From contig CBDCWI010000002.1 in the NCBI GenBank assembly GCA_965223325.1, positions 2,016,001-2,080,000 on the forward strand: a stretch of DNA of 64,000 bases, read 5' to 3'. The notes beneath the pieces were generated by a model. The model was not told the DNA's origin and did not search any database. It saw nothing but the letters and a program-made list of their open reading frames with translations. Shown piece after piece: positions 1 through 24,300 of this stretch; the first letter of the stretch is position 1; every line of letters starts with the position of its first letter. The translations under genes were made by a program, and so were the position numbers. Origin of the DNA: Candidatus Multivoradales bacterium. GTDB lineage: Bacteria > Acidobacteriota > Thermoanaerobaculia > Multivoradales > Multivoraceae.

Positions 1-2
1 TC

Positions 3-344
3 ATCTGGCCGCTTCTCATCGGCTTCAACCGCGCCAAGGAGTACCTCTTCACCGGCGAGCCCATTACCGGAAAACAAGGGGCCGAAATGGGACTGGTCAC
101 CCGGTCGGTACCGCGCGAGAACGTACTGCCAGTGGCACTCGAATGGGCGGAGCGACTCGCAGCGCTCGCACCGAAGGCACTGCGCTGGACGAAGTACTCG
201 ATGAACCGAATCCTGCAGCAACAGGTCGGACACGCCCTCGACGTCTCGACGTTCCTCGAGGCGGCGACCATGGACAGCGAAGATCTACGCGAGGCGGCGG
301 CGGCCTTCTACGAGAAACGGGAACCCAGGTTCACTGGTCAGTAG
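3..344 (+). CDS. Enoyl-CoA hydratase/isomerase family protein, 5'-truncated by window edge
   Basis: Open frame from nt 3 (IWPLLIGFNRAKEYLFTGEP...MGLV...SEDLREAAAAFYEKREPRF), typical crotonase C-terminal half. Confidence 0.85.
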   Translation: MWPLLIGFNRAKEYLFTGEPITGKQGAEMGLVTRSVPRENVLPVALEWAERLAALAPKALRWTKYSMNRILQQQVGHALDVSTFLEAATMDSEDLREAAAAFYEKREPRFTGQ

Positions 345-632
345 GCTCACAGAACAAACGGAACTGCGAATTGCGCTTAACGGGTCGCGGACACTAGAAA
401 CAGAGACGCTCCCACCTTGGACGAGGCCCGAAGGCTCCTCGGTACCCCAGGAAACCGGGCGGGCCGCTCGAGGCGGCGAGCGCAGTGCGATGTGAGGGGC
501 GCTCGTGACGGGACGGCGGTGTGGCCCCGGTCGGTGTGCTCGACTGAGACCGAGAGGGCACGCGGTGCGCCGCGCACCGCGGGATCGGCCACAACGCTCC
601 GCTCTTCCGCACCCCGAGCAGGCTCGCGGGGA

Positions 633-673
633 GGCCCCCTGGGGGACCGGACGGGACGACCGGGCGACGGTAC
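633..673. repeat. ~41-bp repeat, copy 1 (copy 2 at 5273-5312)
   Basis: GACGGGACGACCGGGCGACGGTAC is identical at 650-673 and 5289-5312, each preceded by GGCCCC(C)TGGGGG. Confidence 0.85.
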
Positions 674-1590
674 CCGCAGCTCACCCGTTTCCTCGCTGCG
701 CGACCAGACCCAATCACCGATCTCGATTTCCCCGATCGGTTTCATCCCGGTCTCCGTCCACACCGGAGTGCCTGCGACGAAGCACTTCTGAGGCGTCGCG
801 GTACGACCCACTGCCTGTGGAGTTGCTGTCCGTGGCTTCGGCGAGGTTGTGCTCTGTTGAGCACTCCGTCTTGCACGGTTGGAGGCGTTCAAGGCGGCTA
901 CTGCTTCGTCAGCTCGCTTGGCTGCCTGCTCGCCCACTTCGGCCACGCTCTTCGCAGTGGCTCGGCCTGTGCTCCTGGCCGTACTCCGCCCTGCGCTACC
1001 CGCGTTCAGGCTCTGGGCTACGAAGGACGTGAGCTTCGTCTGCGACGCCGCATCGCCCCTCGCCGCACCGACTACGACCTCCCCGGCGCCTTTCGCCAGC
1101 TGGGTCGCCACCTCTTCTGGGTTCTCCGAGATGACGTCCCACGTGTCGGACAAAGCGCCCATCGTCTCGACGAGGCGCTCCTCCGCCTCCCTGCCCATCG
1201 TCGTGTCGGGAGACAGGCTCGCAACCATTCCGTCGGCCACGAAGCTCGTCGCATCAACACCGAAAGCGAGAACGTCGGCACCGGCACCGAAGACTCCCAG
1301 CGCCACGGCCGCTCCACCCTTCAGACGACGCGTCACGAAGTTGTCACCGAAAGCGTGATCGATTTCCTCGGCGAGGTCGCCGGATGCCTCAGCGGCCTCG
1401 TCCGTCCCTCCCCGCCTGAGGAAACCCGAGAAGCGCTCGAGAATGTCGATCCTCCCATCAGGATCGATCCACACCGTCGGGTTGACCTTGCCGAAGGTGT
1501 ACCAGTGCAGCGAAGGTGGATCGGACAGGTCGCCAAAGACCGGATCTTCGGTGAGGAACCTCCCCACTTGTGGGTCATAGAAGCGGGCTT
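674..1590 (-). pseudogene. Orphan RHS C-terminal cassette 1, truncated within a pretoxin HINT domain
   Basis: ARFYDP..GRFLTEDP...NPTVWIDPDG core end, helical linker, then CFVAGTPVWTETGMKPIGEIEIGDWVWSRSEETGEL (HINT N-terminus) that breaks off at the repeat near 673; no toxin tip or immunity gene follows. Confidence 0.8.
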
Positions 1591-1600
1591 CTAATGTCCC
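1572..1600. other. Putative recombination site, cassette 1 (29-bp imperfect palindrome)
   Basis: GGGTCATAGAAGC-GG-GCTTCTAATGTCCC; first 19 bp identical to 11274-11292 in the rhs gene. Confidence 0.7.
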
Positions 1601-1746
1601 TACCGCGATCTAGCCCTAGACCGCTGATTCCCTGAGAGTTACCTCGATCTCGGCGTTGCTATGCCCCCACCGCGAGGTTTCAGGACCGCGCAGCCGCCAC
1701 ACGCCGTCGGAACGTCCCCCCGACCGTGCGCGGCAACGCCGCGCGA
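1591..1746. repeat. Cassette leader element A, copy 1
   Basis: Aligns by eye with 3190-3345, 7409-7562 and 9500-9655. Confidence 0.9.
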
Positions 1747-1843
1747 TCTGGCGACTTCAGTCCGCTCTTGCCGGTAACCAGCGACTGGTTGTGCCGTTGG
1801 ACCGACCCAGTCGACACTCGAAAGACTCTGCCATCGCTCGTCG

Positions 1844-2083
1844 CTAGCTAGTTCCATCGTCTCCATGAAGCGCGGCTATCGCCCGTTCTAGGGCCACCGA
1901 GAAGTCCGTAGCTACAAGTTCAAGGTTGGCGGATCCAGCAAAGAGAGTGAGACGGACTTCTCCATCGGTGGCAGCCAAATCAGCAATGATCTCTCCATCG
2001 GCCAGGACCTCGTAGTAGTCAACATCTTCTTGGACGGAATAGACGTGCTGGACCTTGAGGGTTTCGATATGCCGAGTCTTCAT
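1844..2083 (-). CDS. Putative immunity protein of cassette 2
   Basis: 79-aa acidic ORF directly after the toxin tip, with GAGG RBS upstream. Confidence 0.65.
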   Translation of the reverse strand: MKTRHIETLKVQHVYSVQEDVDYYEVLADGEIIADLAATDGEVRLTLFAGSANLELVATDFSVALERAIAALHGDDGTS

Positions 2084-2100
2084 TACTTGATCTACCTCAG

Positions 2101-3189
2101 CTATCGCAAGGGGTCTATGAAGCCGATGAACTCGCCATCAGCGGTAAAACGCGCGCCGTGACCACTGGAAACGCGGAACTCAAGCGTGAGACCACTGCGG
2201 GGCAAGACTGGGGTCGTCACTACCCCTTCGTCAAGAATCTTGACAAGCGCACGTTCAGCCATGTCGTTGAGAGCAGCTTGTGACCCAGTCGCAACTTCAC
2301 CGAGGACCGTCTCGGCCACCTCAGGGTGCTTAGTGAGAGCCCGGCCCGCTTGGGTCAAGCTACCACCCTTGAACGGAGTCGAAGCGACCGCAACCAGCTC
2401 CTCAGCCTCGAACTGACGGCCGCCAACAGTCAGCGGGTTTCGAGCACCGCGACCAACTCCCGCTTTCCCTAGATCGACGGCTTCGTCAGCCAAACGGAGC
2501 GCACCGAATCCGAGCGCCGCTTCAGCGAAGAACAACTCGGGAGCTACGACTCCCACACTGAAAACGACAAGCTTCGGTGATCTCGGCTACGTACCCGATC
2601 CCCTCAAACCCCTTGTGGAACTGGCACAGGTTGTTGCAGTTCGCCTCAGGCCCAAGGATCGACGACACAATCCTCACGTCTCGACCTCTGCCGGGAACCC
2701 CCTTCTCGTGAGTCAGGTACAGACGAAGCGAAGTCTGGAAGATGTAGTGCTGGTTCTCCCACGTCTGCCCAGGATCACGTTGGTCTTCGAGCCAAATGAA
2801 GATCTCGGTGAGAAACTCCTCACCATCAGCCACCCGCTTCTCCAGCCGCTGCACCTCATGCCGCAGTCGGTTGACCTCGCCAGTCGGATCAGGTCCCGTG
2901 AGCCCAGGGCCTACCTCACCATCTCGGTCTTTGAACCGTTCTTTCCGCTCTTCGAACCTGGCAAGGCGCTGCTCAGCATCAGCAAGCGCGTCACGGCTCG
3001 TCTGCAGTGACTGGCGGTCTGCAGCGTGCTCCTCCAACGTCACGTCGAATCGCCCGTCGGGATCGACGAACACTGTCGGGTTCACCTTCCCGTAGGTGTA
3101 CCAATGGAGCGAGGGCGGATCGGAGAGGTCTCCGAAGACGGGGTCTTCGGTGAGGAAGCGCCCCACTTGTGGGTCATAGAAGCGGGCTT
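2101..3189 (-). pseudogene. Orphan RHS C-terminal cassette 2, frameshifted near 2575; putative nuclease tip
   Basis: ORF 2522-3166 carries the RHS core end; overlapping ORF 2101-2556 continues in another frame (KLVVFSVGVVAPELFF...LTQAGRALTKHP), a toxin-tip-like motif. Confidence 0.7.
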
Positions 3190-3199
3190 CTGATGTCCC
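3171..3199. other. Putative recombination site, cassette 2
   Basis: GGGTCATAGAAGC-GG-GCTTCTGATGTCCC. Confidence 0.7.
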
Positions 3200-3345
3200 T
3201 ACCGCGATCTCACCCTAAACTACTGATTCCAAACGGGTTATCCAGATCCAGGAGTTGCTATGCCCCTACCGTGCACTTTCAGGATCACCAGGCCGCCGAA
3301 CCCCTCGGGAAAGTCCCCCCGACCGTGCGCGGCAACGACGCGCGA
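3190..3345. repeat. Cassette leader element A, copy 2
   Basis: Highly similar to 9500-9655; IHF-consensus match AATCAGTAGTTTA (minus strand) at 3216-3228. Confidence 0.9.
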
Positions 3346-3463
3346 TGTTCGGCCATCGGAGGTTTGTGATGTCTCTGAGGTGATCGAATCTTCGTCGCGG
3401 TCGCTCTCGATTGTTTGATCTCGTAGCGTTGGTGAGCGCGCGCGCGCTGACCCGGTTGGCGAT

Positions 3464-4507
3464 TCAGCCGAGCGAGTCGTCGAGCACTTCGAGCGCGCGG
3501 TCGCAACCGTCGCCCTCGAGAGCAGAACGCGCCCGAGCCGCGCCCCGACGAACGTGCCCTGCGGCGCCGGTTGGCAGCGCGCGAGCTACAGAGACCAGAT
3601 CGTCGGGCGCGTATTCGGCCAGCACCGCGACGAGCACCGTCGCCTGCCAGAGATCCTTGGCACTCTTGTCACTACCCGAGTCCCTCAGTTCAGCAACCAG
3701 CATCTTGTGCCAGGCGAATCGTTCCGGCCGCGGAACGCGGACAGGAGCGATGCATTCGCGCGCGATCACCACCGCCTCCTTGGAGTCTTCGAGCAGGTAG
3801 CCGAGGTACGGAATTGCAGTGGCGTGCGCTCTCAGTTCCCGTACCTCACGAGTCTCGATCTCACGGCCTCGCCCCGGAACCAGGAGGTCGACGCGGAGCC
3901 GATCTGGGCCGGGCGGTTTGAATGAGGTGGGCTGGCCACCGCGTGCGAGCGATGGCACCGGATGGAAGGGCACAGTGGAGTCCCTGAGGATGCTGAGAAA
4001 GTCGGCCCCGTCGGGCAGCCCGACCTCGAGTGGCCGGCGCCGCGCGATGTCGACGTCTTCGGTTTGGTAGGGGGCGCTGGCGACACCGAGATCGTTGATG
4101 AGGGCACCAAAGGCGTGTGAGCCCACCAAAAGAGCACCCGCTCGGAAGAGACCCGCATTGACCAGAGCAGCGAGAACCGAGCCCGTTCGGATGTCCGCCC
4201 GCGCGTACCCCTGCTCGGCCAGCAACCGGCCCTCTCGCACGAGCTGCTTCTGGATCTCGATCTGCGAACGGATGGAGTCGGCCTTGCGCTCGGCCTCGGC
4301 GTCTCCAGCGCTACCGAGGTAATCGGCAGCCTTTTTCCCCCGCGCGTCGTAGAACTGCCGATAGAGGTACTCCCGGCCCTTGACGATCCGGCTCCCCACG
4401 GTGCCGGGTGTTCCTGCCAACAGGTTCGTTTGTTCGAACGCCCGGCGCTTGAGATCCGAGTAGGCGGTCTGGAAGACCATGGGATGCGCACTGTAGAAAG
4501 TCGTCAT
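3464..4507 (-). CDS. Nucleotidyltransferase-fold protein (GSU2403/NTP_transf_8-like)
   Basis: LLVGSHAF...QTEDVDIA (GS...DxD), RVDLLVP, VRVPRPERFAWHKMLVA...KSAKDLWQA; GGAGG RBS. Confidence 0.8.
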   Translation of the reverse strand: MTTFYSAHPMVFQTAYSDLKRRAFEQTNLLAGTPGTVGSRIVKGREYLYRQFYDARGKKAADYLGSAGDAEAERKADSIRSQIEIQKQLVREGRLLAEQGYARADIRTGSVLAALVNAGLFRAGALLVGSHAFGALINDLGVASAPYQTEDVDIARRRPLEVGLPDGADFLSILRDSTVPFHPVPSLARGGQPTSFKPPGPDRLRVDLLVPGRGREIETREVRELRAHATAIPYLGYLLEDSKEAVVIARECIAPVRVPRPERFAWHKMLVAELRDSGSDKSAKDLWQATVLVAVLAEYAPDDLVSVARALPTGAAGHVRRGAARARSALEGDGCDRALEVLDDSLG

Positions 4508-4521
4508 GGCGTCCTCCCGGG

Positions 4522-4601
4522 GTTGTTCTCTACGGATGATTGCTAGAGAACAGCCGGCGGAACAAGGTGTTGTTCTCTAGTCTAGCAAACTAGATAACAA
4601 C
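4522..4601. promoter_or_regulatory. Two tandem inverted-repeat operators upstream of the NTase gene
   Basis: GTTGTTCTCTA-N11-TAGAGAACAGC (4522-4554) and GTTGTTCTCTA-N11-TAGATAACAAC (4569-4601). Confidence 0.75.
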
Positions 4602-4701
4602 CAGCCAGTGACTAGGCCGGTGTTGGCCTACTGGACGGTCGAGTTCCGCGCCGCGCGAGCAGCTAAGAGGAGAAAGACCACGTCACCTGCGGCCTCTCGA
4701 T

Positions 4702-4994
4702 CTAGGTCGTCAGCGGGATTCGGCTCAGGTCGCGGCTCCCGCGGACGACCGCGACGATCTCGAGACGCTCCGACCGGGGTAGACGATCCGGTAGCTGTCG
4801 ACGAGGACCTCGCGCAGGCCGAGACCAGGCTTCTCGGGCACTTCACGCCCCGACTGGGGAAAGTCACTCAATCGCTCGGGAGCAGCGAGCAGACGAGCCA
4901 CGAAGCGGCTCGCCCGGTCGACAGAGTCTTCAGAAATGTAGTCGTGAATCGCTTCGAGGTGCCGCACCGAGCGCAGCGACCAGACGACCTTCAT
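4702..4994 (-). pseudogene. RelE/ParE-family toxin, frameshifted near 4775
   Basis: MKVVWS...LEAIHDYI...LSDFPQSGREVPE...YRIVY; the expected C-terminus (ERLEIVAVVRGSRDL) is in another frame ending at TAG 4702. Confidence 0.8.
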
Positions 4995-5179
4995 CGAGAC
5001 AGCAGGTGCTGCTCTGCCTCGGCCTGGGTCATCACACGCCCTTCGTCCAGGTCGCGCAGCCCCGCTTCGATCTCCTGGCGCACGTAGATCTCGTAGAGCA
5101 GATCCTTCCAGGTGGCGTCGTCGGGAAGCTGGTCGACCAGCTCTCGGGCTTGTTCCTTGATCGTCGTCATCGTGCTCAT
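4991..5179 (-). CDS. Antitoxin partner of the ParE/RelE toxin
   Basis: 62 aa, IKEQARELVDQLPDDATWKDLLYEIYVRQEIEAGLRDLDEGRV; overlaps the toxin start (ATGA). Confidence 0.8.
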   Translation of the reverse strand: MSTMTTIKEQARELVDQLPDDATWKDLLYEIYVRQEIEAGLRDLDEGRVMTQAEAEQHLLSR

Positions 5180-5272
5180 TCTATCGTCCCTCCCGAAGGC
5201 TCAGCCGCCGGGCTCCCCGTCCTTGAGCTCGTGACCGAACTACACGGTACACGGCGCCTACGCACGCCGGGG

Positions 5273-5312
5273 GGCCCCTGGGGGGCCTGACGGGACGACC
5301 GGGCGACGGTAC
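5273..5312. repeat. ~41-bp repeat, copy 2
   Basis: Matches 633-673. Confidence 0.85.
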
Positions 5313-5411
5313 GGACCAGGCACGCGAGATGATCTCGGCACAAAGGCCCGGGCCGGGGCGCCGGTTGTGACGGCAAGACCCGTTAGAGGCTCAGGATTCC
5401 GCCCGCTCCAG

Positions 5412-5438
5412 GTTGTACATAACTCCGTTATGTCAAGC
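5412..5438. other. dif-like palindrome (Xer-type site or operator)
   Basis: GTTGTACATAA-CTCCG-TTATGTCAAGC; right arm resembles an XerD arm, but the spacer is 5 bp rather than 6. Confidence 0.4.
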
Positions 5439-5454
5439 CCCGAAGGGGCCGAGC

Positions 5455-5823
5455 CGCGGCGTACGAGGGCCAGAGTCGGGGAACGCCGCGTTCCCGGACA
5501 GGCGGATCTGCAAGCGGCGTGACAGAAGGGAGGTCCGAGGAGGGGCCCAATGGCGCGACGCTTGCCCCGCCAGTCTGGCCCGATCCCGGAGGGCGGACGA
5601 CGCGGCGATGCCTGGAACGGGCGGAATCCGGATCGAAGCCTTCTTCCTTAGTGGCTACCAAAAGCCCCGGGCCGGGACGCGATTCGGGTGGCTGCGACGA
5701 TTCGATGGCTCGGCGAGCCCGGGCGGGTGGGCCGGGGGGACTTCCGTTCCGAGAAAGACTGCAGGACGCAGGGCGACGCGCTCCGGCGTCAGCCGGAGTG
5801 CGGCGTCCCGAAGGCCTGGCGAC
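5455..5823. repeat. Inter-cassette element B, copy 1
   Basis: Aligns with 9658-10023 and 7566-7843; ends CTGGCGAC next to the immunity gene stop. Confidence 0.9.
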
Positions 5824-6102
5824 CTACTGGCTGTCGTCCGCACCATCGAGCTCCTTGACAACAGAATCTCGGAGGCTCTCGACAAGGGTCAGCCAATCCC
5901 TCAGCTCCGAGGGTCCGGACGTGTCCACAAGGCCCCGGTGCGAGGTAGCGTGATCGAGTAGCGCCTCCAGGGCACATCGCCTCTTGCCTTGGTTGCCGAG
6001 GACATCTTCAGCTAAGCGCTCAATACTCTCCGCATAAGCACAGTGGCCCCCCGCGCGAAGTTCCTCGACTACACTCTGCAGCACATTCTCAAGGTGGCTC
6101 AA
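5824..6102 (-). CDS. Putative immunity protein of cassette 3
   Basis: 92-aa ORF overlapping the toxin stop by 4 nt. Confidence 0.65.
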   Translation of the reverse strand: MSHLENVLQSVVEELRAGGHCAYAESIERLAEDVLGNQGKRRCALEALLDHATSHRGLVDTSGPSELRDWLTLVESLRDSVVKELDGADDSQ

Positions 6103-7408
6103 TCCAGCTCCTCCAAGCGTACGGCACCGGACCTCGTTCCTCCGGCGGTAACCGTCTGCTCACCTCCACCGGCCTTGAAGGTTGGGCCAAACACGGGGTC
6201 GGTCGGCCGGCCTCCCTGGCCCCTGACTTTGCCTTCAAGCAGGATCTGACTCCGCGTTAGTACCGCTCGTCTCACACGGATCGCGTTGTTCTTGCTGGGG
6301 AGCGCGAACAATACGGTTCGGGCAAGTGCTGGAAGGGAGGACGCGGGCCTTACGAAGAGGCCTGATGCTGGCGAAAGAAGCGCACTGTCGGCAAAGAAGT
6401 TCTCGCCAGCCAACCCTCGGCGAGCGGTGATCTTACCCTTGAAGGAGCGAACCACATCCCTCGCTGCCTCGGGCGAGAAACCTCGCTGTTCAAGAAGTCG
6501 ACGAGCACCCTTGTTGTTGATCTTCGCAGGGGCCTGGCTAAGACCCCGGCCAAGATTCGACGCCTCTCGAGCGCGGCGACTCTGAGCAATGTTCTGAGTC
6601 ACCCGCTGACGAATCTCGCTCCGCGCTCGTGGTAAGGCCCTGACACCCGCCTGCAGCAAGGCCGGAGGAGGCGATGGCGCCGCCTCATTGGCAGCCCGCA
6701 CCGCACTACGAGCTCTGCTCGTCCGATTCAAAGACTTGACCGCATCTGCAGCACTGCCGACGGACCTCCTCGCAGCGCCACTGGCTGTTCCAGCGCCCTT
6801 GCTCAGCAAAACCTCCGCAAGAATCTCGGTCTTGAACGCCTGGACCTTGGCAATGGTCTCTGGGTCGCCCGAGGCAAGTTTTCCGGACGTGCTGGCCACT
6901 GCCTTGACCGCGGCGGAAGCCGCCTCGCTTGGATGCTCGACGACGTAGCTGACTCCAGCCTTCACGCCCTCGATCGTCGACTCAATCGATTCCTCGAGCT
7001 CGAGTGCCGCTTCCTGAGCGATCGGGTTGTCGGAGCCCAGGGCAGTGGCGGCACCAACGTTCGCCGAGAAGTTCAGGAAGCCGACACCCCGATCGACGAG
7101 CCCAAGTGCCCCCGCAGCTGAGCCCTTGATCTTCGCTTCTGCCCTGCCTGCGAGGTTCCCCAGCACGGTATCTTCGCCGAACACCGCGTCACTGATGCTG
7201 GCAGCCCCAGCAATGATCTCGGCCTTCTTGGCTCGGATCCTTTCCTGCAGTGCACGCAGCTCAGCGATGCGCCCATCCGGGTCGACCCAGACGGTCGGAT
7301 TCACCTTGCCGTAGGTGTACCAATGCAGCGACGGCGGATCGGAGAGGTCTCCAAAGACCGGATCCTCCGTCAAAAACCTCCCCACTTCAGGGTCATAGAA
7401 GCGGGCTT
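6099..7408 (-). CDS. Orphan RHS C-terminal cassette 3; possible ADP-ribosyltransferase-like tip
   Basis: RHS core end NPTVWVDPDG; basic tip with ALP..N...LEG.V..Q...GGGEQ, reminiscent of Rhs ART tips (recall, unverified). Confidence 0.75.
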
Positions 7409-7418
7409 CTGATGTCCC
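7390..7418. other. Putative recombination site, cassette 3
   Basis: GGGTCATAGAAGC-GG-GCTTCTGATGTCCC. Confidence 0.7.
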
Positions 7419-7843
7419 TACTGCGAACTCACCTAAATCACTTAATCCATTGAGCTTGCTCGGGTCCGAGGGTTAATATGCCCCCACCGTGCACTTTCGG
7501 GATCGCGAGGCCGCCAAACCCTCGGGAAAGTCCCCCCGACCGTGCGCGGCCACGACGCGCGATCCGAAGAGGGGCCCACTGGCGCGCCGCTTGCCCGACG
7601 GCCTGGCCCGGCCCCCGTGGGCGGACGACGCGGCGACACCTGGGGCCGGCGGAATCCGGATCGAAGCCTCCTACTTTAGAGGCTACGAAGCCCCGGGCCG
7701 GGGCGCGGCTCGGGTGGCTGGGACGGTTCGCAGGAAGGCCGAGCCCGGGCGGGTCGGCCGGGGGACTCCGGAAAAGACTGCAGGACGCAGGGCGACGCGC
7801 TCCGGCGTTAGCCGGAGCGCGCGGCGTCACGGAGACCTGGCGA
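7409..7843. repeat. Element A (7409-7562) plus internally deleted element B (7566-7843)
   Basis: Aligns with 9500-10023 but lacks about 80 bp equivalent to 9657-9736. Confidence 0.88.
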
Positions 7844-7902
7844 CCTTCAAGTTTCGGTCAAAGATGGTCGCCGGAGCCAAAACTCCCTGCTGGGATCGGG
7901 TC

Positions 7903-8355
7903 TCATTCGACAACGACGGCTGGTCGCCACCGCCTTCTTTCAAAGTACCTTGTTGACTCCTCAGAAAAATGCGCCTCGGCGTGGCCGTTTGCGTAGAGCA
8001 CTAGCTCGACCTGGCCGTCGTCTACCAAGACCGCTACCCGAGTACCTAGGTCACTCGACAATCGGACAGCCGACCGATCGGCAACTACCTCAAGTATCTC
8101 TCGCTCAAGGGACTCCCGCGGCGCGCTGAGGTAGACAGCAACTGCAAAGGCCCTTGAATCTGCGATGGCCCAAAGCGGGCTGCCATCGGTTTCGCCTCTA
8201 GACCGAAGATAGTCGTCCGCATCCCGAGCTTCGTCACCCACGTATGCCACCTCTACGTGAAACGGCCACTTCTCGGAGAGCACATGAGACAGCTTCGCCT
8301 CAACCTCAGAGCAGTCCGAGCTTTCGACACAAAGCACTACGTAGGGGGATGACAT
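7903..8355 (-). CDS. Putative immunity protein of cassette 4
   Basis: 150-aa acidic ORF starting 2 nt after the toxin stop. Confidence 0.7.
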   Translation of the reverse strand: MSSPYVVLCVESSDCSEVEAKLSHVLSEKWPFHVEVAYVGDEARDADDYLRSRGETDGSPLWAIADSRAFAVAVYLSAPRESLEREILEVVADRSAVRLSSDLGTRVAVLVDDGQVELVLYANGHAEAHFSEESTRYFERRRWRPAVVVE

Positions 8356-8357
8356 TC

Positions 8358-9499
8358 TCAGAAGTCTTTCGGATTCGGTAGACTGGCCTCATCGACCACC
8401 CGGATCGAAACCGACGGGTCCTTGGGGTTGAATCTTGAGACAAAGCCCTCAAAGGTGGCTAGCGGGACTCTGGAATCAGCCGCTCTAACAACGATAACAA
8501 GGCCACCCTCACCAACCTGGCCGACCCCCTTGTTGAGATCGCGGGCGAGGTTCTTCAGGCCCTTCGCTCGCTTCACCTCAGTGAACTGGTTCAGCGGCTT
8601 CCCTTTCCGTGAGACATGAAGATCTGGCCTCGGGGTCTGCGCTTCCGGAACGAAGCGAACATCCTTTCCCTCAAGTCGCAACAGCTCCGCGACCTTCAAC
8701 TCTGCTACGGCGCTGGTGTCACCCCTTTTCGCCATCCGAACTCTTCTGGAGCGCTCAGCCAAATCCCCTGTGATGCGACCAGCTGTGCCTCCAGACCTAG
8801 CCTTTCCTCTCGGTGAGGCCAGGTTTACTCTCGGTGCACCGGAACCGGCGGAGCGCGTTCTAGCGGCACGAGATGCTCCACGGAGACTTCCCGCTCCCTT
8901 TCCTCCTGCAGCAAACTCCAGTGCCGTCCTCTTAGCTCGAATCTGAGCGTCCGCGTCTCCCTCGACGGCACGGGTACCTACATCGACGACGTTCTCAATG
9001 ATCTCTTTGACGTCCGGAGTCTCTCGCTCGATCTTCTCAAGCACCTCTCGTTGACGAGGCCTGAGTTCGCGATCGGCAATCGTTGAGGAGCTAGAGAGAA
9101 GGCGCTCGTGATCAATGGCCTGGTCGGCACCATGAAGGCCGAACCCAATCACACCGAGCACTGCAGACCCTGCGGCCGCAGCATCCTCGATGCGATTTCC
9201 AATGAAGCCACCAACGACGGGGATCTTCTCGGAGGCCTGGTCCGATAGGTCTGCCGCCGCAGAGATCAAAGTTTCGTCGGCTAGCGCTACCGCCTCCTGA
9301 GCTGTGTCCAGCTTCTCCTGTGCTCCAACGAGGAGTTCGTCCAGCTGCTCTTGGCTCATCCGACCGTCCGGATCGACCCACACCGTCGGGTTGACCTTGC
9401 CGTAGGTGTACCAGTGCAGCGAAGGTGGATCGGTGAGGTCTCCAAACACCGGATCTTCGGTGAGGAAGCGACCGAGTTGAGGGTCATAGAAGCGGGCTT
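8358..9499 (-). CDS. Orphan RHS C-terminal cassette 4; PD-(D/E)xK nuclease-type tip
   Basis: ARFYDPQLGRFLTEDP...DPDG; tip AELKVAELL...PRPDLHV...FTEVKRAK (E...PD...ExK). Confidence 0.8.
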
Positions 9500-9509
9500 C
9501 TGATGTCCC
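9481..9509. other. Putative recombination site, cassette 4
   Basis: GGGTCATAGAAGC-GG-GCTTCTGATGTCCC. Confidence 0.7.
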
Positions 9510-10023
9510 CACCGCGATCTCACGCTAAATCACTGATTCCAAACGGGTTATCCCGATCTCGGAGTTGCTATGCCCCCACCGTGGACTTTCGGGATCGCGA
9601 GGCCGCCACTCCCCTCGGGAAAGTCCCCCCGACCGTGCGCGACAACGACGCGCGACCCGCGGCGTACGAGGGCCAGAGTCGGGGAACGCAGCGTTCCCGG
9701 ACAGGCGGATCTGCAAGCGGCGTGACAGAAGGGAGGTCCGAGGAGGGGCCCAATGGCGCGACGCTTGCCCGCCGGTCTGGACCGATCCCGAAGGGCGGAC
9801 GACGCGGCGATGCCTGGAGGGGGCGGAATCTTCGTCGAAGCTTCTTTCTTAGTGGCTACCAAAAGCCCCGGCTCGGGACGCGGACCCGGAGGAGAGGGTG
9901 ACTCGCAGAAAGGCCAGCCCGGACGGATGGGCCGGGGGGACTTCCGTTCCGAAAAGGACTGCAGGGCGCAGGGCGACGCGCTCCGGCGTCAGCCGGAGCG
10001 CGTCGTCCCGGAGACCTGGCGAT
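9500..10023. repeat. Complete inter-cassette element A+B (~520 bp, non-coding)
   Basis: IHF consensus at 9526-9538; motif repeats at 9503, 9570, 9621 and inverted at 9933; hairpins at 9682-9698 and 9971-10009. Confidence 0.9.
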
Positions 10024-10052
10024 CTCATGCACGATCGCAAGGTTGACTTGAT

Positions 10053-10277
10053 TCAGGTTTCGGTGAGGCCGAGCCCTAGGTCGAAGAGCCCGGCCTCTAC
10101 AGTCTCTAGTGCTCTCTCCCAGTCGGCCCAGGCCGCAGGATCTGCTGTTTCACCGTCCGCCAGGAAACTCATGCCACCGAGAAGAGCGCCCAGATCGCCC
10201 GAACCGGTTCTCTTGTACACGCCCTCTAGGAACACAAACATAGCGGCATACGCTTCCTTACTCGTGAGTCTGTCCAT
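10053..10277 (-). CDS. Cognate immunity protein of the full-length RHS toxin
   Basis: 74 aa, 2 nt after the rhs stop; LTSKEAYAAMFVFLE...DGETADPAAWADW. Confidence 0.75.
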   Translation of the reverse strand: MDRLTSKEAYAAMFVFLEGVYKRTGSGDLGALLGGMSFLADGETADPAAWADWERALETVEAGLFDLGLGLTET

Positions 10278-10279
10278 CT

Positions 10280-13200
10280 CTATTGTTTCCCTCGCGACAG
10301 CCCGGTGTCAGAATTGAAAGTCCTTGGCTCGAGGTTTAGGCCTCCGTTCTGAACGATCCCATCACGGGTTTGAACCCAAGCCTGGGTACCGTCATCAAGC
10401 GTGCGTGCTGACCACTCGTTACCGAATCTATCGGTTCCCAGAGTCGCTGCTGGATCATCCGCGACGTCGATCAACAGGTTTCGGTTCTCTGGTGTGTCAG
10501 GCAGATGTCCTGGCCTATCTTCGAAAATGTGCTCGAGCTGGGAGTCACCGTCTGGGAACCGAGTAGCCGACTCTGGGGGAGCAGAAGCTCCCCTTGCCGC
10601 ACGAGCTCTCTTCCCTCGAAACGCGCGAACAAACTTCGACCCACCTCGGACCAATCCACCCGCCGCGGTGCCAACCTCGAGCACGGTCCGCTTCGTTCGA
10701 ATCTGAGCTTCTCGATCTCCCCTGGAGGCCTCATACCCGACCTCGACGGCGCTCTCCAAGATGAGAACAGCGCTGTCTTTCGCCTCTTCGACGAGCTGCT
10801 GGTTCGCTTCGAAACCTCTTGTGCGGTGTGGAAGCGCCTCGGGCTCCGCAATCATCGTTATCGGCGACTGCTGATTGTTGGCGTTGATCTCTAGCGCTAG
10901 ATCTACAGCCTGAACAGCACTCGGCGGGATCCGAAGGAGGTTGAGGCCGGCCGAGGCGACAGCTGCCAAGTCTTCAGTTCTTTCAGCAAGCCAGGAGCCT
11001 CCAGGTAGCTCTTCAAGCTTGTCAGCCGCTTCCGCGGCCTTCTCGATAACAGCATCATCGAGCTCGGTGATCATTTCTTGAGCGCGCTCTGCCTTCTCCA
11101 CCACCTCGTCAGGCAGTCCCTCCGGCGCAGAGGGCATTCCGCGTACCTCCACTCGCCCATCGGGATCGACCCAGACCGTCGGGTTGACCTTGCCGTAGGT
11201 GTACCAATGGAGCGACGGTGGATCGGAGAGGTCTCCAAACACCGGGTCCTCGGTAAGGAAGCGGCCCAGCTCCGGGTCATAGAAGCGGGCTTTGGCGTAG
11301 TACAACCCCGTCTCATCATCCAGCTCATGTCCCGTAAACCCGAACACGTTCGCACTCGACCCCACCTGCGAGCGTAGGTTGCCCCACGCGTCCCAGCGGT
11401 ACCTTGCCTTCAAGGCGCCGTCGGGCTGGATCAGGTTGGAGATTGAGCCCAGGGCGTCGAAGAGGTAGAACTGGCGGCCTTCTGAGGTGTTGTTGAGCGA
11501 CAGGAGGCGGTCGGGGCCGTAGTCGTACTTCGAAAGGGTGAAGCCGTTGTCGTCGGTCTGCTGGAGCACGCTCTGGTCGTCGTAGACGTAGCGCACTGTC
11601 CCTTCGGGGCCGCCGCTCTTGCGGATGCGGAGGCCCTGGTAGTCGTACTGGTAGTAGCCCGAGAGGAGGCCGTTGGTGCGCACTTCGGTGAGCTGGTCGC
11701 GGCTGTCGTAGAAGTGCTCGCGGGTCTCGCTGCCCTGGCTGCGGGTGCGCAGGTTGCCGTTCGGGTCCCAGCTGTAGGTCACCGACTGGGTCGCGTCCAG
11801 AGCGTCGATCATTGATTCGATACGGTGGCGGCTGTCGTAGCTGAGCGTTCGGTCGCGGGTGACGCCGCTGGTGCTTGTGTCGACTTCGGTGAGACGGTTG
11901 CCTACGCCGTCGTAGGTGTAGGTGGTGGTCTTGTCGGGGTACACCACCTGGGTGAGGCGGTCGGCCAGGTCGTAGCTGTAGGTCGTGGTCTCGGCGGCGC
12001 CGCCGTTCTCTTCGACCTGGACCGTGCGGTTGCCGTTCCGGTCGTACTCGTACGAGTAGCTCGAGACCAGGGCGCTGTTCCAGCGGTTGGTGATCGTCTC
12101 GGTGCGACCCGCCAGGTCGTAGGTGGTGTCGGCCGTCGTACCGTTCGGGTAGGTAACGCGCTCGAGGCGGCTGTCGCGGTAGTAGCGATACTCAGTCGTT
12201 CCACCGTCGGTGGTCACGGTGGTCGGGCGGTTCAAGCCGTCGAAGGTGTAGGTCGTAGCGAGGCCGTCGGAGTCTTCGAGGCGGGTGCGGTTGCCGTTGG
12301 GGTCGTAGCGGTACGAGAGGGTCTCGCCCTGAGGGTCGGTTACGGTCTCGAGGCGGTCGAAGGTGTCGTAGGTTCTGGTGGTGACGCGGGTGCCGGTTGC
12401 ACCGGTGTACTGCTCCTCGATCAGGGTCGGGTTGCCCGATGGGTCGTAGGTCATCGAGATCTCTGACAAGAAGTCGGTGCGGTCGGGGTCGTTGACCGGC
12501 TCGGGGTAGGTCACCGAGGTCTCTCGATCGAGAACGTCGTAGGAGCGGGTGATCTCCTGGCCTACGGCATCGCGAAGGCCGGTGATGTTGCCGTTCTCGT
12601 CGTAACGCATCGCCTCAGCCGAGCTATCGGCCATGGTCTTGGTGGCCTGGCGGGAGAGGGCGTCGTAGGAGAAGGTGGTGGCACTGTTCTCGGCGTCGAG
12701 GTGCTCGAGGAGGTTGCCGGCCTCGTCGTACGTGTACGACGTCGTACCAGCCGGGGATGTGACGCTCTGAATGCGGTTGGCTTCGTCGTAGCTGTTGCGC
12801 CAGGTACCCCCTTCGGGGCGCTGCGTGAGGGTGCGGTTGCCGGCCAGGTCGTACTCGTAGAGGGTCGTCTCGCCGGCGCCGGTGGTCTCGCTCGAAAGAC
12901 GCTGCCGCAGGTCGTACGCGCGGCTCGACTCACGACCCACGGGATCGATCTCGAGGATGACGCTACCCATGGCGTCGTAGTGGAACACCGTGGTCGACGT
13001 CTCGGGGCGGTTCTCGACCAGCGCCAGGTCGCGCTCGTCGTAGTTCCAGGACGTCGTAGCGCCGTTGGCGTCGGTCTCGGAGACTTTGTTGCCGTTGGCG
13101 TCGTAACGACGTGAAAGCAGCTGCAGCCCATCGCGCGACTGCGCGATGTCGCGGTTCTCGCGATCGAAGGTAAAGCGCTGCGCAATGCCGCGGCGATCGA

Positions 13201-21376: not shown

Positions 21377-24300
21377 AGACCCCCACCAGTGGAGCCATCA
21401 TCCGGGCCAACAGCTCTTCGCCCGCCGGCGCCGAGACGCCGGACGCCGAAGGCAAGCAGAAGCCCAACCAATAGAAACAAACCGAACGGTCCGAGCACTG
21501 GAATCGCAATGACACTCGGACTCAAGTCGACCACCGTGGCATCGCCCTTCTCGACGGTGGTGGGATCATCGCTGTAAGTCGGCTCGAGATCGCCGGCGGT
21601 CAGAACACCCTGGATCGCCACGAAGCGCGTCCCCGGGAGCGGAGCCTCGGCGAGGCGGGTCGCAAAGCGCAACCAGCGCGCACCGCCGGGCTCGATTCCG
21701 CCGAAGGCATGCAGCGCCTCCAGCTCCGGCCCACTTGCATCGCGGCTGGAGGTGCACCCTTCAGGTGGTGAGCCATCTCCGAACTGCACGCTGCCGGGCA
21801 CCGTCTTCAAGACAGAAGGAACGTCGACCAGGGCCGTCACGCCGCGGGCGGCCGCGTCACCTACGTTCTCCACCCGCAGCGTCCATACGAGGACGTCACC
21901 GTGATCGAAGAGCCGATCCAGCTGGCGGTCCTCTTCGAAGCAACGGTCAAGGAATGCTTTGAGCTTCGGGCGCAGCCACTCGACGGTGATGCTGTCCTCT
22001 AGAACCTCACCGCCAGCCGTCGTGGCCACAGCATCGATCCGGGTGAGACCGCGGAAGAGCTTCACTTTGGGAACCAACCAGCTGCCGTCTGCCTCTGCGA
22101 TGACGGAGGGATAGACCCTCGAGTTGTGAGGATGGGCAACGCGGGTGGCCGTCACCTCAACCGTCGCGCCGGGGTCGGCCTGACCGCTCACGTCCTCGTG
22201 CGGGCCGAGCAGACTCTCGCCGTCTTCTGGATCGAGAATCAAGAAGCCAAACGACGGCCTGATCTTGAGGATGAAGCGAACTTCGACCCGCGCCGTATTG
22301 CCGAGCGTGTCTGTTGCCACAACGACCAGGAAGTGCGCACCGTTGGCATCGACCTCGGTGCCGCTCTCGAAAGGCTGGAAGTCGAGGGTGATTTCGGTGG
22401 TGTCCAGGTGCGGGTCTTCGACCGTAATGATCGGCGTCACCGGGTGCTCGTACTCGACCGTATGTTCCACGCCGGTCACCGTGATCTCGGGCGGCGTACC
22501 GTCAACCTCCACCGAAATCGCCTGCGCTCTGCCCTCTGCACCGTCACCGTCTGTCGCACGCGCCTCGATCTGGTGGAGCCCGTCGGCGAGCCCGTCGACT
22601 TGCCGCTCGTAGAAGGGCGCGACCATGGCAGTGGCCGGTAGCCACGCACCGCCGTCCATGCGAATCTCGACCGTGTCGACGGAGTTGTCATCGGTCGCAG
22701 AAACACGGACGGTGAAGCTCGCTGGTAAGAGCGCGTCCGCGAGCGGTTCGACAATCGCAACGACCGGTGGCTCGTTGGTGCCACCAAGCTGGAGGGCGGA
22801 ATCGGCATTCGCCAGGAGCTCTGTTACGAGGAACAGGTCAGCCTCGACCCGATACTGCCCGGGCGCCGCACCCGACGAATCCCACAGACGCTCGACGACC
22901 ACGCTTTGACCCACGGGGATGTCGGCTGGATTGTCCTGCCAACTGGCAACCACCGTTGCGGTGGCCATCTCAACGATGCGCAGGTCGAGGCGCGCACCGG
23001 AAAGCGGCTCCGAGCCGGCCTGAAGGTCGATCTGGGCACGAACTGCGATCTCGGTGCCAACCTCGGCGTTCGCAGGATCGGCGAGCACCGAGAGCCCGAC
23101 AGACTGCGGTACCAGAATCGTAAAGACCTCCGCGCTCTCAGACACCACGGTACCGGCGCCATCGGTAAGAACGGCGCGCACGGTGTAGACCCCTGGGGCG
23201 ACTCCGGCTGTGTCCCAAGTGAAGGGGAACTCCGCCGAACCATCGGCAGGAACCTGGGCCGTACCATCAACAAGAACCGCGACGAGAGAGCCGGCGCTGT
23301 CGTAGACGCGCACGGCAAGCTGGCCGTCCAGGGCAGTGCTCGCTGCAGACACGGTCGCCGACCCCGAAACCACAACACCCGGTGCACCCTCTTCGGCATC
23401 GAGGGCAAGGGTCACAGAAGGCCCGTCGCCGAGGATCACGAAACGAACCAGCGTGCTTGCCTGGTTGCCGGCAAGATCGCGGGCGGTTGCCTGGAGCAGG
23501 TAGCTGCCCGGCTGGGAGACGTCGGTACCCGAGATGAAGACCAGCCCGTTGAGGAGCACCGAGCTTGCCGCGAGATGGTCTTCTAAGATCTGAACGACTG
23601 GCGTCACGGTCCCGGTCAGCTGCTGGCCGTCGATGACGCCAAGAATGGTGATCAGAGGTGGCGTGAGATCGACCTCGAAGGTCAACGGACCCGCCGTCGC
23701 AACGTTGCCGAAACGATCGGTCGCGCGGGCGGTGGTGGTGTGCGTACCTTCGCTGAGGCCACTGGCATTGAGGACGAACTCCCCACGCTCGATATCGGCC
23801 AGGGTGGCCAGCATGAACGGTCCGCCGTCGATCGCGATCTCGACCCGCTCGATCCCGGAAAGGTCATCGGTCGCGGCCACCACGAGCCGGGCGTCGGCAG
23901 CGAGGAACGCACCATCCGTCGCCGGCGAGCGGAACTCGAGCACCGGCGGTTGACGGTCCACCAGGCTGACCTGAATCGTCGCCAGGCGGACGGTTTCCAC
24001 TCCCCCGCCAGGTGCTGGCAGGTCGGCCGAAAGAACCGCGACATAGGACGCCAACTCCAACCCGTCGGTGGCGAACTCGGCCCGCCCGCTAATGGTTTCC
24101 TGGACGGCGAGATCATAAAGCTCGACCACCGCGCCCAGCTCTTCGCCGCTCTCGGCGCGGCGCAGAACCACCCGCACCGGAATTGCTGCCAGATCGACTC
24201 CACCGACGTTTCTAACCGTGAAGTCGAGCGGCAGAGTGTCGCCTACCGCCACCGCCGAAGAAGGCCCGAAGAGAGAGCCTACGAGCGCGGCGGGCTGCAA

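Follow-up and report, generated by a model that had tools for sequence, protein, structure and literature searches.

The DNA analysed here, called the window throughout, is a stretch of 64,000 nucleotides (nt) from a Candidatus Multivoradales bacterium (contig CBDCWI010000002.1, positions 2,016,001 to 2,080,000). It corresponds to G000:C2:2016001-2080000, where G000 is the source genome of 6.69 Mb and C1 its other contig; everything said of the seam rests on this one genome. Judged from its gene content, the locus is an Rhs orphan array, in which one expressed rhs gene encoding 3698 amino acids (aa) is followed by four silent toxin-tip cassettes (Table 1). The full-length gene carries RHS/YD repeats upstream of the tips, as expected of an orphan array. 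Four leaders were counted for the five tips, with none behind the last tip. Beyond the array, the 12 kb examined contain fatty-acid metabolism genes. The element under study is the seam between each leader and its cassette, a 29-bp imperfect palindrome.

The stretch common to the gene and the cassettes, here called the handle, comprises 46 codons with 84–90% amino-acid identity in the alignment; it is the 3' end of the core as far as the DPxG motif. Perfect DNA blocks are scarce, because the handle is elsewhere only 66–90% identical between copies; there are two such blocks, one of them at the seam. The tips that follow the handle are unrelated (19–43% DNA identity), with the exception of a duplicated CT2. 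All five tips begin at one nucleotide, and the core fragments of variable length that characterize enterobacterial arrays were not observed. Homology between the gene and the cassettes begins at AAGC, 4 bases before the centre of the dyad, and all sequence upstream of this point differs. The same seam and the same leader were found in 5/5 cassettes, including a copy on contig C1.

This C1 copy (C1:1781066-1782299; 2035-4534 of locus L018) matches window 6332-7562, which covers part of cassette 2 and its leader, with 96% identity over 1234 nt. The duplicate begins at the terminus of leader module A and sits between two identical rve-type transposase open reading frames (ORFs) in inverted orientation. 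It has the look of a composite transposon and adjoins a truncated ORF with a weak YwqJ-deaminase match. Another RHS-repeat gene, of 1346 aa, lies about 2.3 kb away.

The palindrome forms 12 Watson-Crick pairs with a T/T mismatch (A/A on the coding strand), one bulged base and a central GG/CC. Matches to GGGTCATAGAAGCGGGCTTCTGATGTCCC number 4 in the window and 0 in 100 shuffles. The recomputed pairing is the same as in the original prediction, which was made from the letters alone and described a stem with one T/T mismatch and one bulged base at the cassette junction, half of it coding and half non-coding. The coding arm, on the minus strand, consists of the codons GCC CGC TTC TAT GAC CC (ARFYDP). 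The other arm is non-coding, with in-frame stops 10–11 codons upstream. That the bulge is the sole variable position among the four window copies was also borne out, three copies being exact and one differing by G>A. The layout is a dyad of the serine-recombinase type, 13-GG-13 with one mismatch and one extra base, and its central dinucleotide is non-palindromic. As had been noted, the rhs gene keeps only the AAGC/GCTT symmetry (11274-11292), and the asymmetry of the site between gene and cassettes is real: the gene has a partial dyad without a fold (-0.9 kcal/mol as DNA, -2.5 as RNA).

Palindromes of similar quality (at least 12/13 pairs, at most 1 bulge, loop 0–6) make up 1154 clusters genome-wide (6.69 Mb), a density of 0.17 per kb. 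The seam palindromes count as one event, because all copies descend from one junction, and the chance that such a palindrome covers one pre-named point is about 0.005 for this single ancestral event. Fold energies of the 35-mers range from -5.1 to -6.0 kcal/mol as DNA and from -11.6 to -12.5 as RNA (z from -1.4 to -3.6). The dyad is rare in its regularity and unremarkable in its folding energy. Outside the six rhs sites, the genome has no exact copy of either arm.

The seam is the best-conserved stretch of the repeat unit. Across five copies, 0 substitutions were found in 28 palindrome positions, and the bulge alone varies (C, C, C, T and TC). The non-coding arm is invariant in 5/5 copies, the bulge excepted, and GCC CGC TTC TAT GAC plus CC is invariant in 6/6 copies, counting the gene, the C1 copy and the four cassettes. 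In these copies, codons 1–5 of the handle are frozen at each of their five synonymous sites, and the next 20/20 codons vary at the third position. Invariant degenerate codons amount to 12/45 overall; the probability that the first five fall among them is 6.5e-4. The longest invariant run in the five-copy alignment is 21 nt (AGAAGCCCGCTTCTATGACCC) and lies at the seam, the next longest being 8 nt.

A comparison of two units points the same way. The C1 copy and cassette 2 show 5 differences in about 1006 positions through the tip (0.5%), and from codon 23 back to the leader start they differ at 44/218 positions (20%). Within the 29 nt of the palindrome they differ at the bulge only, with 5.6 differences expected (0.8^28 = 0.002). 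The ARFYDP codons vary freely among 10 core ends, mostly of full-length rhs genes, from 8 related genomes, and they also vary in an independent metagenomic orphan family. Because the same codons vary in the relatives and in this family, the freeze at the seam is not a protein or codon-usage effect. From these alignments, the seam looks selectively maintained, not a neutral leftover. The variable length of the bulge (1 or 2 bases) fits better with a folded single strand than with a dimer-bound duplex dyad.

The cassette leader is, by sequence comparison, built from repeats of the repetitive extragenic palindromic (REP) and REP-associated tyrosine transposase (RAYT)-like type, the latter being Y1 transposases. 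The start of module A is identical in all five copies, behind five different upstream sequences. Its terminus reads ATCGCGCG, then the hairpin GCGCG(T/G)C-GTT-GCCGCGC, then CACGGTCGGGGGGACTTTCCCGA, and is the end of a multi-copy G000 element with inverted ends of ~45 nt and a Y1_Tnp (IS200-like) ORF of 320–347 aa. The predicted fold of the leader is not special (z = +0.5). The Y1_Tnp element is present in at least 10 copies of ~1.4 kb with ends GATCGCGCGGCGATGCCGCGCAC(A/G)GTCGGGGGTAAGTTTTGA, sometimes in tandem, and solo ends occur; it was located at C2:4448420-4487817 (L020) and C1:2125285-2142783 (L021), and has a RAYT-like look but is multi-copy. Another motif, (C/A)GTCGGGGGGACTTTCC, has about 20 copies and brackets another Y1_Tnp gene, of 319 aa, in inverted orientation; tandem triplets were found too. 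Its loci are C1:970007-971340, C1:1242425-1243776, C1:1917242-1918591, C2:784927-786298 and C2:1745289-1745589, and it probably represents the REP/REPIN family of G000 (REPINs being REP doublets). The idea of the leader as a decayed core was rejected: when the 200 nt upstream of the gene site were compared with the leaders, 110–294/500 shuffles scored as high.

The original prediction had further proposed that a recombinase binds and cuts the dyad. This lacks support, as no recombinase gene is nearby and the reconstructable breakpoints lie elsewhere. Neither the 64-kb window nor the 12 kb past the array contains an integrase, resolvase or transposase gene. The genome encodes 9 tyrosine recombinases, the nearest at C2:2253521, about 216 kb from the array, and 4 serine recombinases (Resolvase), the nearest at C2:1573611. 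The array thus has neither the adjacent integrase gene of an integron, the nearest Phage_integrase match being about 216 kb off, nor the linked cognate gene of a serine-recombinase system.

Crossover mapping, a check named beforehand, placed the reconstructable breakpoints outside the dyad. The units are mosaic: the C1 copy and cassette 2 have one breakpoint between handle codons 23 and 24, about 52 nt 3' of the dyad, and a second near 45 nt upstream, within the leader. The public data comprise four contig-only runs (X1–X4) from one study, and contigs are blind to rare recombinants. In these runs, strain variants diverge from the reference at 11154 (two runs), at 11092 and at 11069, positions that are level with or past the 3' end of the handle. 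These variants are among the contig ends listed, besides which there are 66 further loose ends, and parts of run X4 without cover carry no weight as evidence. Contigs also diverge at window 10064 and 10739, and in co-occurring strains the gene seems to end in other tips. Judged from the mosaics and strain variants, homologous recombination inside the handle is documented, and exchange within the shared core piece is what orphan arrays are expected to display; exchange at the dyad is not documented.

Related arrays were searched for in other genomes. A DNA search for the leader plus seam returned 0/60 relatives, two genomes having only 28–32-nt matches to the REP part, and the dyad had no match on plasmids. 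A peptide scan of the genome contigs gave 4 weak loci. Handle-like peptides were present in 19/61 genomes searched, G000 included. Among 18 short-frame loci extracted from the relatives, 14 have at least 50 core codons, 2 about 20 and 2 about 6–8, and 0/18 start at the G000 seam position. In G042, a genome of the same order, contigs C198 and C238 (L139 and L140) start exactly at TCTATGACCC, inside the RFYDP codons, and carry two different tips. A contig break at the equivalent place suggests that repeated sequence lies just upstream there too; no G042 contigs carrying the context upstream of the C198 and C238 starts were found.

An independent orphan family with its own conserved leader makes up 7 of 78 metagenomic loci (L029, L030, L031, L034, L036, L040 and L043). 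Its homology to the matching genes (L032, L038, L042 and L044) starts 12–25 nt further 5' than the G000 junction. The only symmetry is GCCTTT-CTACGC-AAAGGC, 9 bp in one member, and the coding arm varies without compensation. The leader of this family is nearly invariant over ~45 nt before the seam and open in frame for more than 40 codons, with an in-frame GTG six codons before ARFYDP; a conserved gene upstream seems to end within it.

A second Rhs family of G000 (YMHARYY type) has two orphans, at C2:2356143 and C2:4532854, which have unrelated leaders and the same homology-start nucleotide. The start, CGACT(A/C)CA(T/C)GCATGC, adjoins the natural palindrome CATGCATG. The orphan at C2:2356143 has a complete Y1-transposase element directly after the handle, in place of a toxin tip, and it is this orphan that has an 8-bp stem, AGTAGCGA / TCGCTACT, across its seam. 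Seams tend to favour the few codons before AR(F/Y)Y, near small natural palindromes; by shuffle test this is not significant. A general rule that orphan-specific bases mirror coding bases was tried on 5 + 2 + 4 seams and rejected, none being significant by energy. In a pair-count shuffle test over the same seams, only L043 reaches P = 0.04.

Our tentative reading, which we regard as possible and hold short of probable, is that the seam is a lineage-specific cis-acting boundary element for cassette propagation and switching via host recombination or replication. The palindrome is the seam between leader and handle, and every copy goes back to one ancestral seam. According to Jackson et al. 2009 (PMC2935791), array units can be excised and re-inserted through circular intermediates. 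The seam would be carried along while units are excised and re-inserted, or duplicated, by homologous recombination. Since circle excision and re-insertion carry one ancestral seam, no site-specific enzyme is needed for identical seams, and the same process yields the observed count of four leaders to five tips, the last tip having no leader behind it. What the circle model does not account for is why about 40 nt are frozen at the seam, and 19 nt in the gene.

In the boundary-element reading, the AAGCCCGCTTCTATGACCC block (19–21 nt), identical in the gene and all cassettes, would be the first stretch for gene-cassette pairing. The cassette-only arm would fold the block on a single strand, so that the block is paused or exposed. 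Pairing, or a template switch of the nascent strand, would set in right at the handle's 5' edge, so that the gene receives the complete handle together with the tip. Host functions in replication and recombination would carry this out, without a dedicated site-specific recombinase. An interaction between gene and cassette is favoured over a cassette-only role, because the gene site is frozen too, without the second arm. We read the conservation as the mark of a function in pairing or template switching, for which the fold would have to form in vivo. The seam may still have a part in recombination through host functions.

Several results weigh against the boundary-element reading. Folds of 24 upstream plus 30 downstream bases were no better in minimum free energy than folds with the upstream bases shuffled, in any of the five copies (P = 0.24, 0.31, 0.62, 0.48 and 0.43), and the hairpin is predicted to be weak as DNA (-5 to -6 kcal/mol). 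The stem has no sequence variation across copies. On its 5' side the conserved island runs past the palindrome by about 11 nt (AGATCGCGGTA), so what is constrained may not be the dyad as such. The dyad pattern (at most 3 mismatches) was found in 1/300 genomes of the order, which is G000 itself. The comparison with homologous arrays went against the original prediction as well, with the dyad absent from 299/299 other genomes of the order, from 60/60 relatives and from the metagenomic family. The mappable breakpoints (codon 23/24 and the 3' end of the handle) lie outside the seam block. No joint of gene site and cassette site was seen in the four contig-only runs, in which contigs cannot show rare forms.

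A role at the RNA level is a doubtful alternative. The seam would form a transcript stem-loop heading each silent cassette, the last member of a REP-like cluster. It would signal RNA processing or stabilisation, or else block ribosomes or exonucleases. Such a block would separate the upstream immunity message from the silent toxin frame. The hairpin is present in the minimum-free-energy fold of the leader and is stronger as RNA (energies above), the leader contains REP-type hairpins and module B terminator-like ones, the tolerance of bulge length suits a folded strand, and cassette 1 has an in-frame GTG within the 5' foot of the stem. An RNA element leaves unexplained the frozen synonymous sites of the expressed gene, which has no second arm. 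The energy is also ordinary, no promoter-like site was found in the leader, and no Rfam match was obtained at E up to 1 over window 1-12000.

It is also rather unlikely that the seam is a historical scar, with the arm born together with the first seam and its invariance due to homogenisation between units and not to a function of the dyad. The scar could have arisen by fold-back or template switch on the AAGC-CC-GCTT mini-dyad, or by chance complementarity of the REP-like CGGT-N-GGG-N-CAT, a motif that occurs again about 70 nt upstream in the leader. The single origin of all copies and the ordinary folding energy agree with a scar, and the arm is similar to a direct repeat that lies within the leader (CACGGTGGGGGCATAGCAA vs TCGCGGTAGGGACATCAGAA). 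The second-family orphans, which share their start nucleotide beside CATGCATG and in one case have a stem across the seam, point the same way. Neutral persistence is unlikely, however, given 0/28 changed positions against 20% divergence in the flank and 5/5 synonymous sites frozen in six copies, and homogenisation of ~40 nt per copy, and of 19 nt in the gene, would require repeated very short conversion tracts.

A bolder reading, which we consider unlikely, is that the frozen 19–21-nt block and the cassette-only arm form a hairpin-directed switch site in coding sequence, where a fold on the single-stranded cassette copy makes a nascent or invading strand leave the cassette and resume on the matching block of the gene, or where an unlinked, unrecognised enzyme cuts.

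A dedicated site-specific recombinase acting at the dyad and encoded elsewhere in the genome, whether on a folded strand as in integrons or as a serine-type enzyme around GG/CC, is quite improbable. It would account for the 19-nt core that gene and cassettes share while differing entirely on one side of it, for the full dyad in the cassettes and the partial one in the gene, and for the non-palindromic central dinucleotide, and the genome has nine tyrosine and four serine recombinase genes. Serial circle integration at the gene site would also lead to four leaders for five tips, but homologous circle integration yields the same architecture (Jackson 2009, PMC2935791). None of the 13 genes lies within about 216 kb, the mapped breakpoints are outside the dyad, and the dyad has no copy outside rhs sites or in the 299 order genomes, which leaves no conserved enzyme-site pair to point to. 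The spacing change of one or two bases in one half-site speaks against a duplex dyad. A duplex operator bound by a dimeric regulator that controls the cassette leaders would suit the near-perfect 13-2-13 symmetry and the strong conservation, and is highly improbable given that half-site spacing differs by one base (two in the C1 copy), that no promoter-like site is nearby, that no 0-mismatch half-site copy exists outside rhs sites, and that the half-site of the gene is conserved without a partner arm.

Further candidates were tried and dropped. An overlapping plus-strand ORF from the ATG of the palindrome (9503-9901) is closed early in cassettes 2 and 4 and not conserved. A stem in the transcript of the expressed gene (GGGUUGUA / UAUGACCC, two of its pairs being G-U) was not predicted by folding and is not conserved in the core ends of 10 relatives. 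Chi- or uptake-like genome motifs, and a REP/REPIN of a RAYT, were rejected for the palindrome since exact arm copies occur only at the six rhs sites; the REP-type motifs of the genome are also different. A TnpB/omega-RNA guide system, with the leader as scaffold and the frozen 21 nt as guide, was rejected for lack of tnpB (PF07282 gave 0 matches, the control being positive in 8/14 genomes). A known RNA family was rejected for lack of an Rfam match.

The positions of all features are given in Table 1. The 2.1-kb insertion places genes of the toxin-antitoxin type within the toxin-cassette array. The rhs gene is preceded by an ORF of 6044 aa (window 21373-39507) with CARDB, Big_13, Big_7, FlgD_ig and fn3 (Ig-like) domains. 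This ORF overlaps the rhs start by 4 bases, an arrangement that suggests translational coupling of the Rhs toxin to a giant surface protein.

Table 1. Features of the Rhs orphan array. Positions refer to the window unless a contig is named.
Feature	Position	Strand	Remarks
Expressed rhs gene, 3698 aa	10280..21376	-	ORF list; Pfam RHS_repeat 7e-26; N-terminal Transglut_core 2e-10; current tip CT0
Handle of expressed gene, 46 codons (ARFYDP...VDPDGR)	11153..11290	-	alignments; sole stretch homologous to cassettes
Site in expressed gene, AAGCCCGCTTCTATGACCC	11274..11292	-	same as cassette copies; only AAGC-CC-GCTT mini-dyad, no hairpin
Cassette 1, handle 9360-9497 plus unrelated tip CT1	8358..9497	-	no Pfam match; candidate immunity gene 7903-8355
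Cassette 2, handle 7269-7406 plus CT2	6099..7406	-	candidate immunity gene 5824-6102
Cassette 3, handle 3050-3187 plus CT3	2522..3187	-	candidate immunity gene 2101-2556
Cassette 4 (last), handle 1451-1588 plus CT4	377..1588	-	weak Hint_2 match; no leader module after
Cassette ORFs 1 to 4	8358-9512, 6099-7385, 2522-3166, 377-1567		ORF list
Palindrome copy 1, GGGTCATAGAAGCGGGCTTCTGATGTCCC	9481..9509		exact; 5' edge of cassette 1
Palindrome copy 2	7390..7418		exact; 5' edge of cassette 2
Palindrome copy 3	3171..3199		exact; 5' edge of cassette 3
Palindrome copy 4	1572..1600		G>A at bulge (A on + strand); 5' edge of cassette 4
Palindrome copy 5	about C1:1782124-1782153		two-base bulge, TC on coding strand
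Leader module A, before cassette 1	9510..9655	-	non-coding, about 146 nt
Leader module A, other copies	7419-7562, 3200-3345, 1601-1746		
Spacer module B	9660..10025	-	terminator-like hairpins; roughly 370 nt; other copies 7560-7846, 5450-5825
2.1-kb insertion	3346..5449	-	exactly between module B and module A before cassette 3
ParE-family toxin gene of insertion	4725-4994		
Small upstream ORF of insertion	4991-5179		
NTP_transf_8 gene of insertion	3464-4507		

The seam has counterparts in several known systems. The attC sites of integrons are imperfect hairpins with an extrahelical base between cassettes and a bipartite R''-L''/L'-R' structure; they share a short core with the site at the expressed position, and the array grows there. 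The G000 seam is like attC in being an imperfect hairpin with an extrahelical base between cassettes and in having a core shared with the expressed-position site. Unlike attC, it has no integrase gene nearby and is a single 29-nt stem (13-2-13), half of which is cassette coding sequence. The units also differ from integron cassettes, being gene fragments that need fusion to a gene.

The gix and hix sites of Gin and Hin (in phage tail-fibre genes) and the sfx sites of the Rci shufflon lie at the junction of a constant N-terminal and an exchangeable C-terminal part. These systems have an adjacent recombinase gene, and their inverted segments flip reversibly. The seam resembles these sites as a dyad round a central dinucleotide at a constant/variable junction, but the cassettes are direct repeats, between which recombination would delete, and no enzyme gene is near. 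In Borrelia vls, 17-bp repeats and an inverted repeat border the silent cassettes, and their role is debated; they are not known to have a dedicated recombinase. Short invariant blocks border the silent cassettes and the expressed copy in both cases. The gene family and organism are different, and vls converts internal segments, whereas here the C-terminal tip is replaced.

The ends of IS200/IS605 elements are hairpins recognised on single strands. REP and REPIN sequences are associated with RAYT transposases (Y1, IS200-like) (Bertels and Rainey 2011, PMC3116915; PMC3337134). The seam shares with this group the single-strand hairpin with bulges and mismatches, G000 has at least 10 Y1 elements with hairpin-bearing ends, and the leader starts with such an end. 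To REP/RAYT ends the palindrome has no sequence similarity; it is confined to rhs seams, and a conserved coding motif makes up half of it.

Rhs orphan arrays are described as a full-length rhs gene followed by silent tips that each have a core piece (Jackson et al. 2009, PMC2935791; Koskiniemi et al. 2014, PMC3967940; Poole et al. 2011, PMC3150448). The array of G000 is like these in its unrelated tips, the small candidate immunity genes after them and the signs of homologous exchange. In the published arrays the core fragments are variable in length and often hundreds of bases long, with 522 bp at 95% identity in Salmonella. The G000 array differs in its uniform 46-codon handles, its one common leader and the frozen imperfect palindrome at the seam. 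Jackson 2009 (PMC2935791) uses neither "palindrom" nor "inverted repeat", and among titles and the beginnings of abstracts no array combining uniform minimal handles, a REP-derived leader and a frozen seam hairpin was found. Rhs orphan arrays are thus already known, and from its sequence this one appears to be set apart by that combination.

Tip switching in polymorphic toxins (Rhs, contact-dependent inhibition or CDI, and others) is known only as homologous recombination over long, near-identical core pieces. In this array, gene and cassettes have just a short piece in common, with divergence at nearly all synonymous sites save for the frozen block at its edge, which is half of a hairpin in the cassettes alone. 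If the block and hairpin do not guide switching, the locus still offers a clear setting in which to ask why synonymous sites stay frozen where a cassette begins. If a hairpin-directed switch were true, a single directed step would transfer the handle with its tip to the gene, and polymorphic toxins would have an integron-like logic without a linked integrase. If the block and hairpin do guide switching, the seam would be a compact cis element for directed toxin-tip replacement and an example of selection on DNA sequence within a conserved protein motif.

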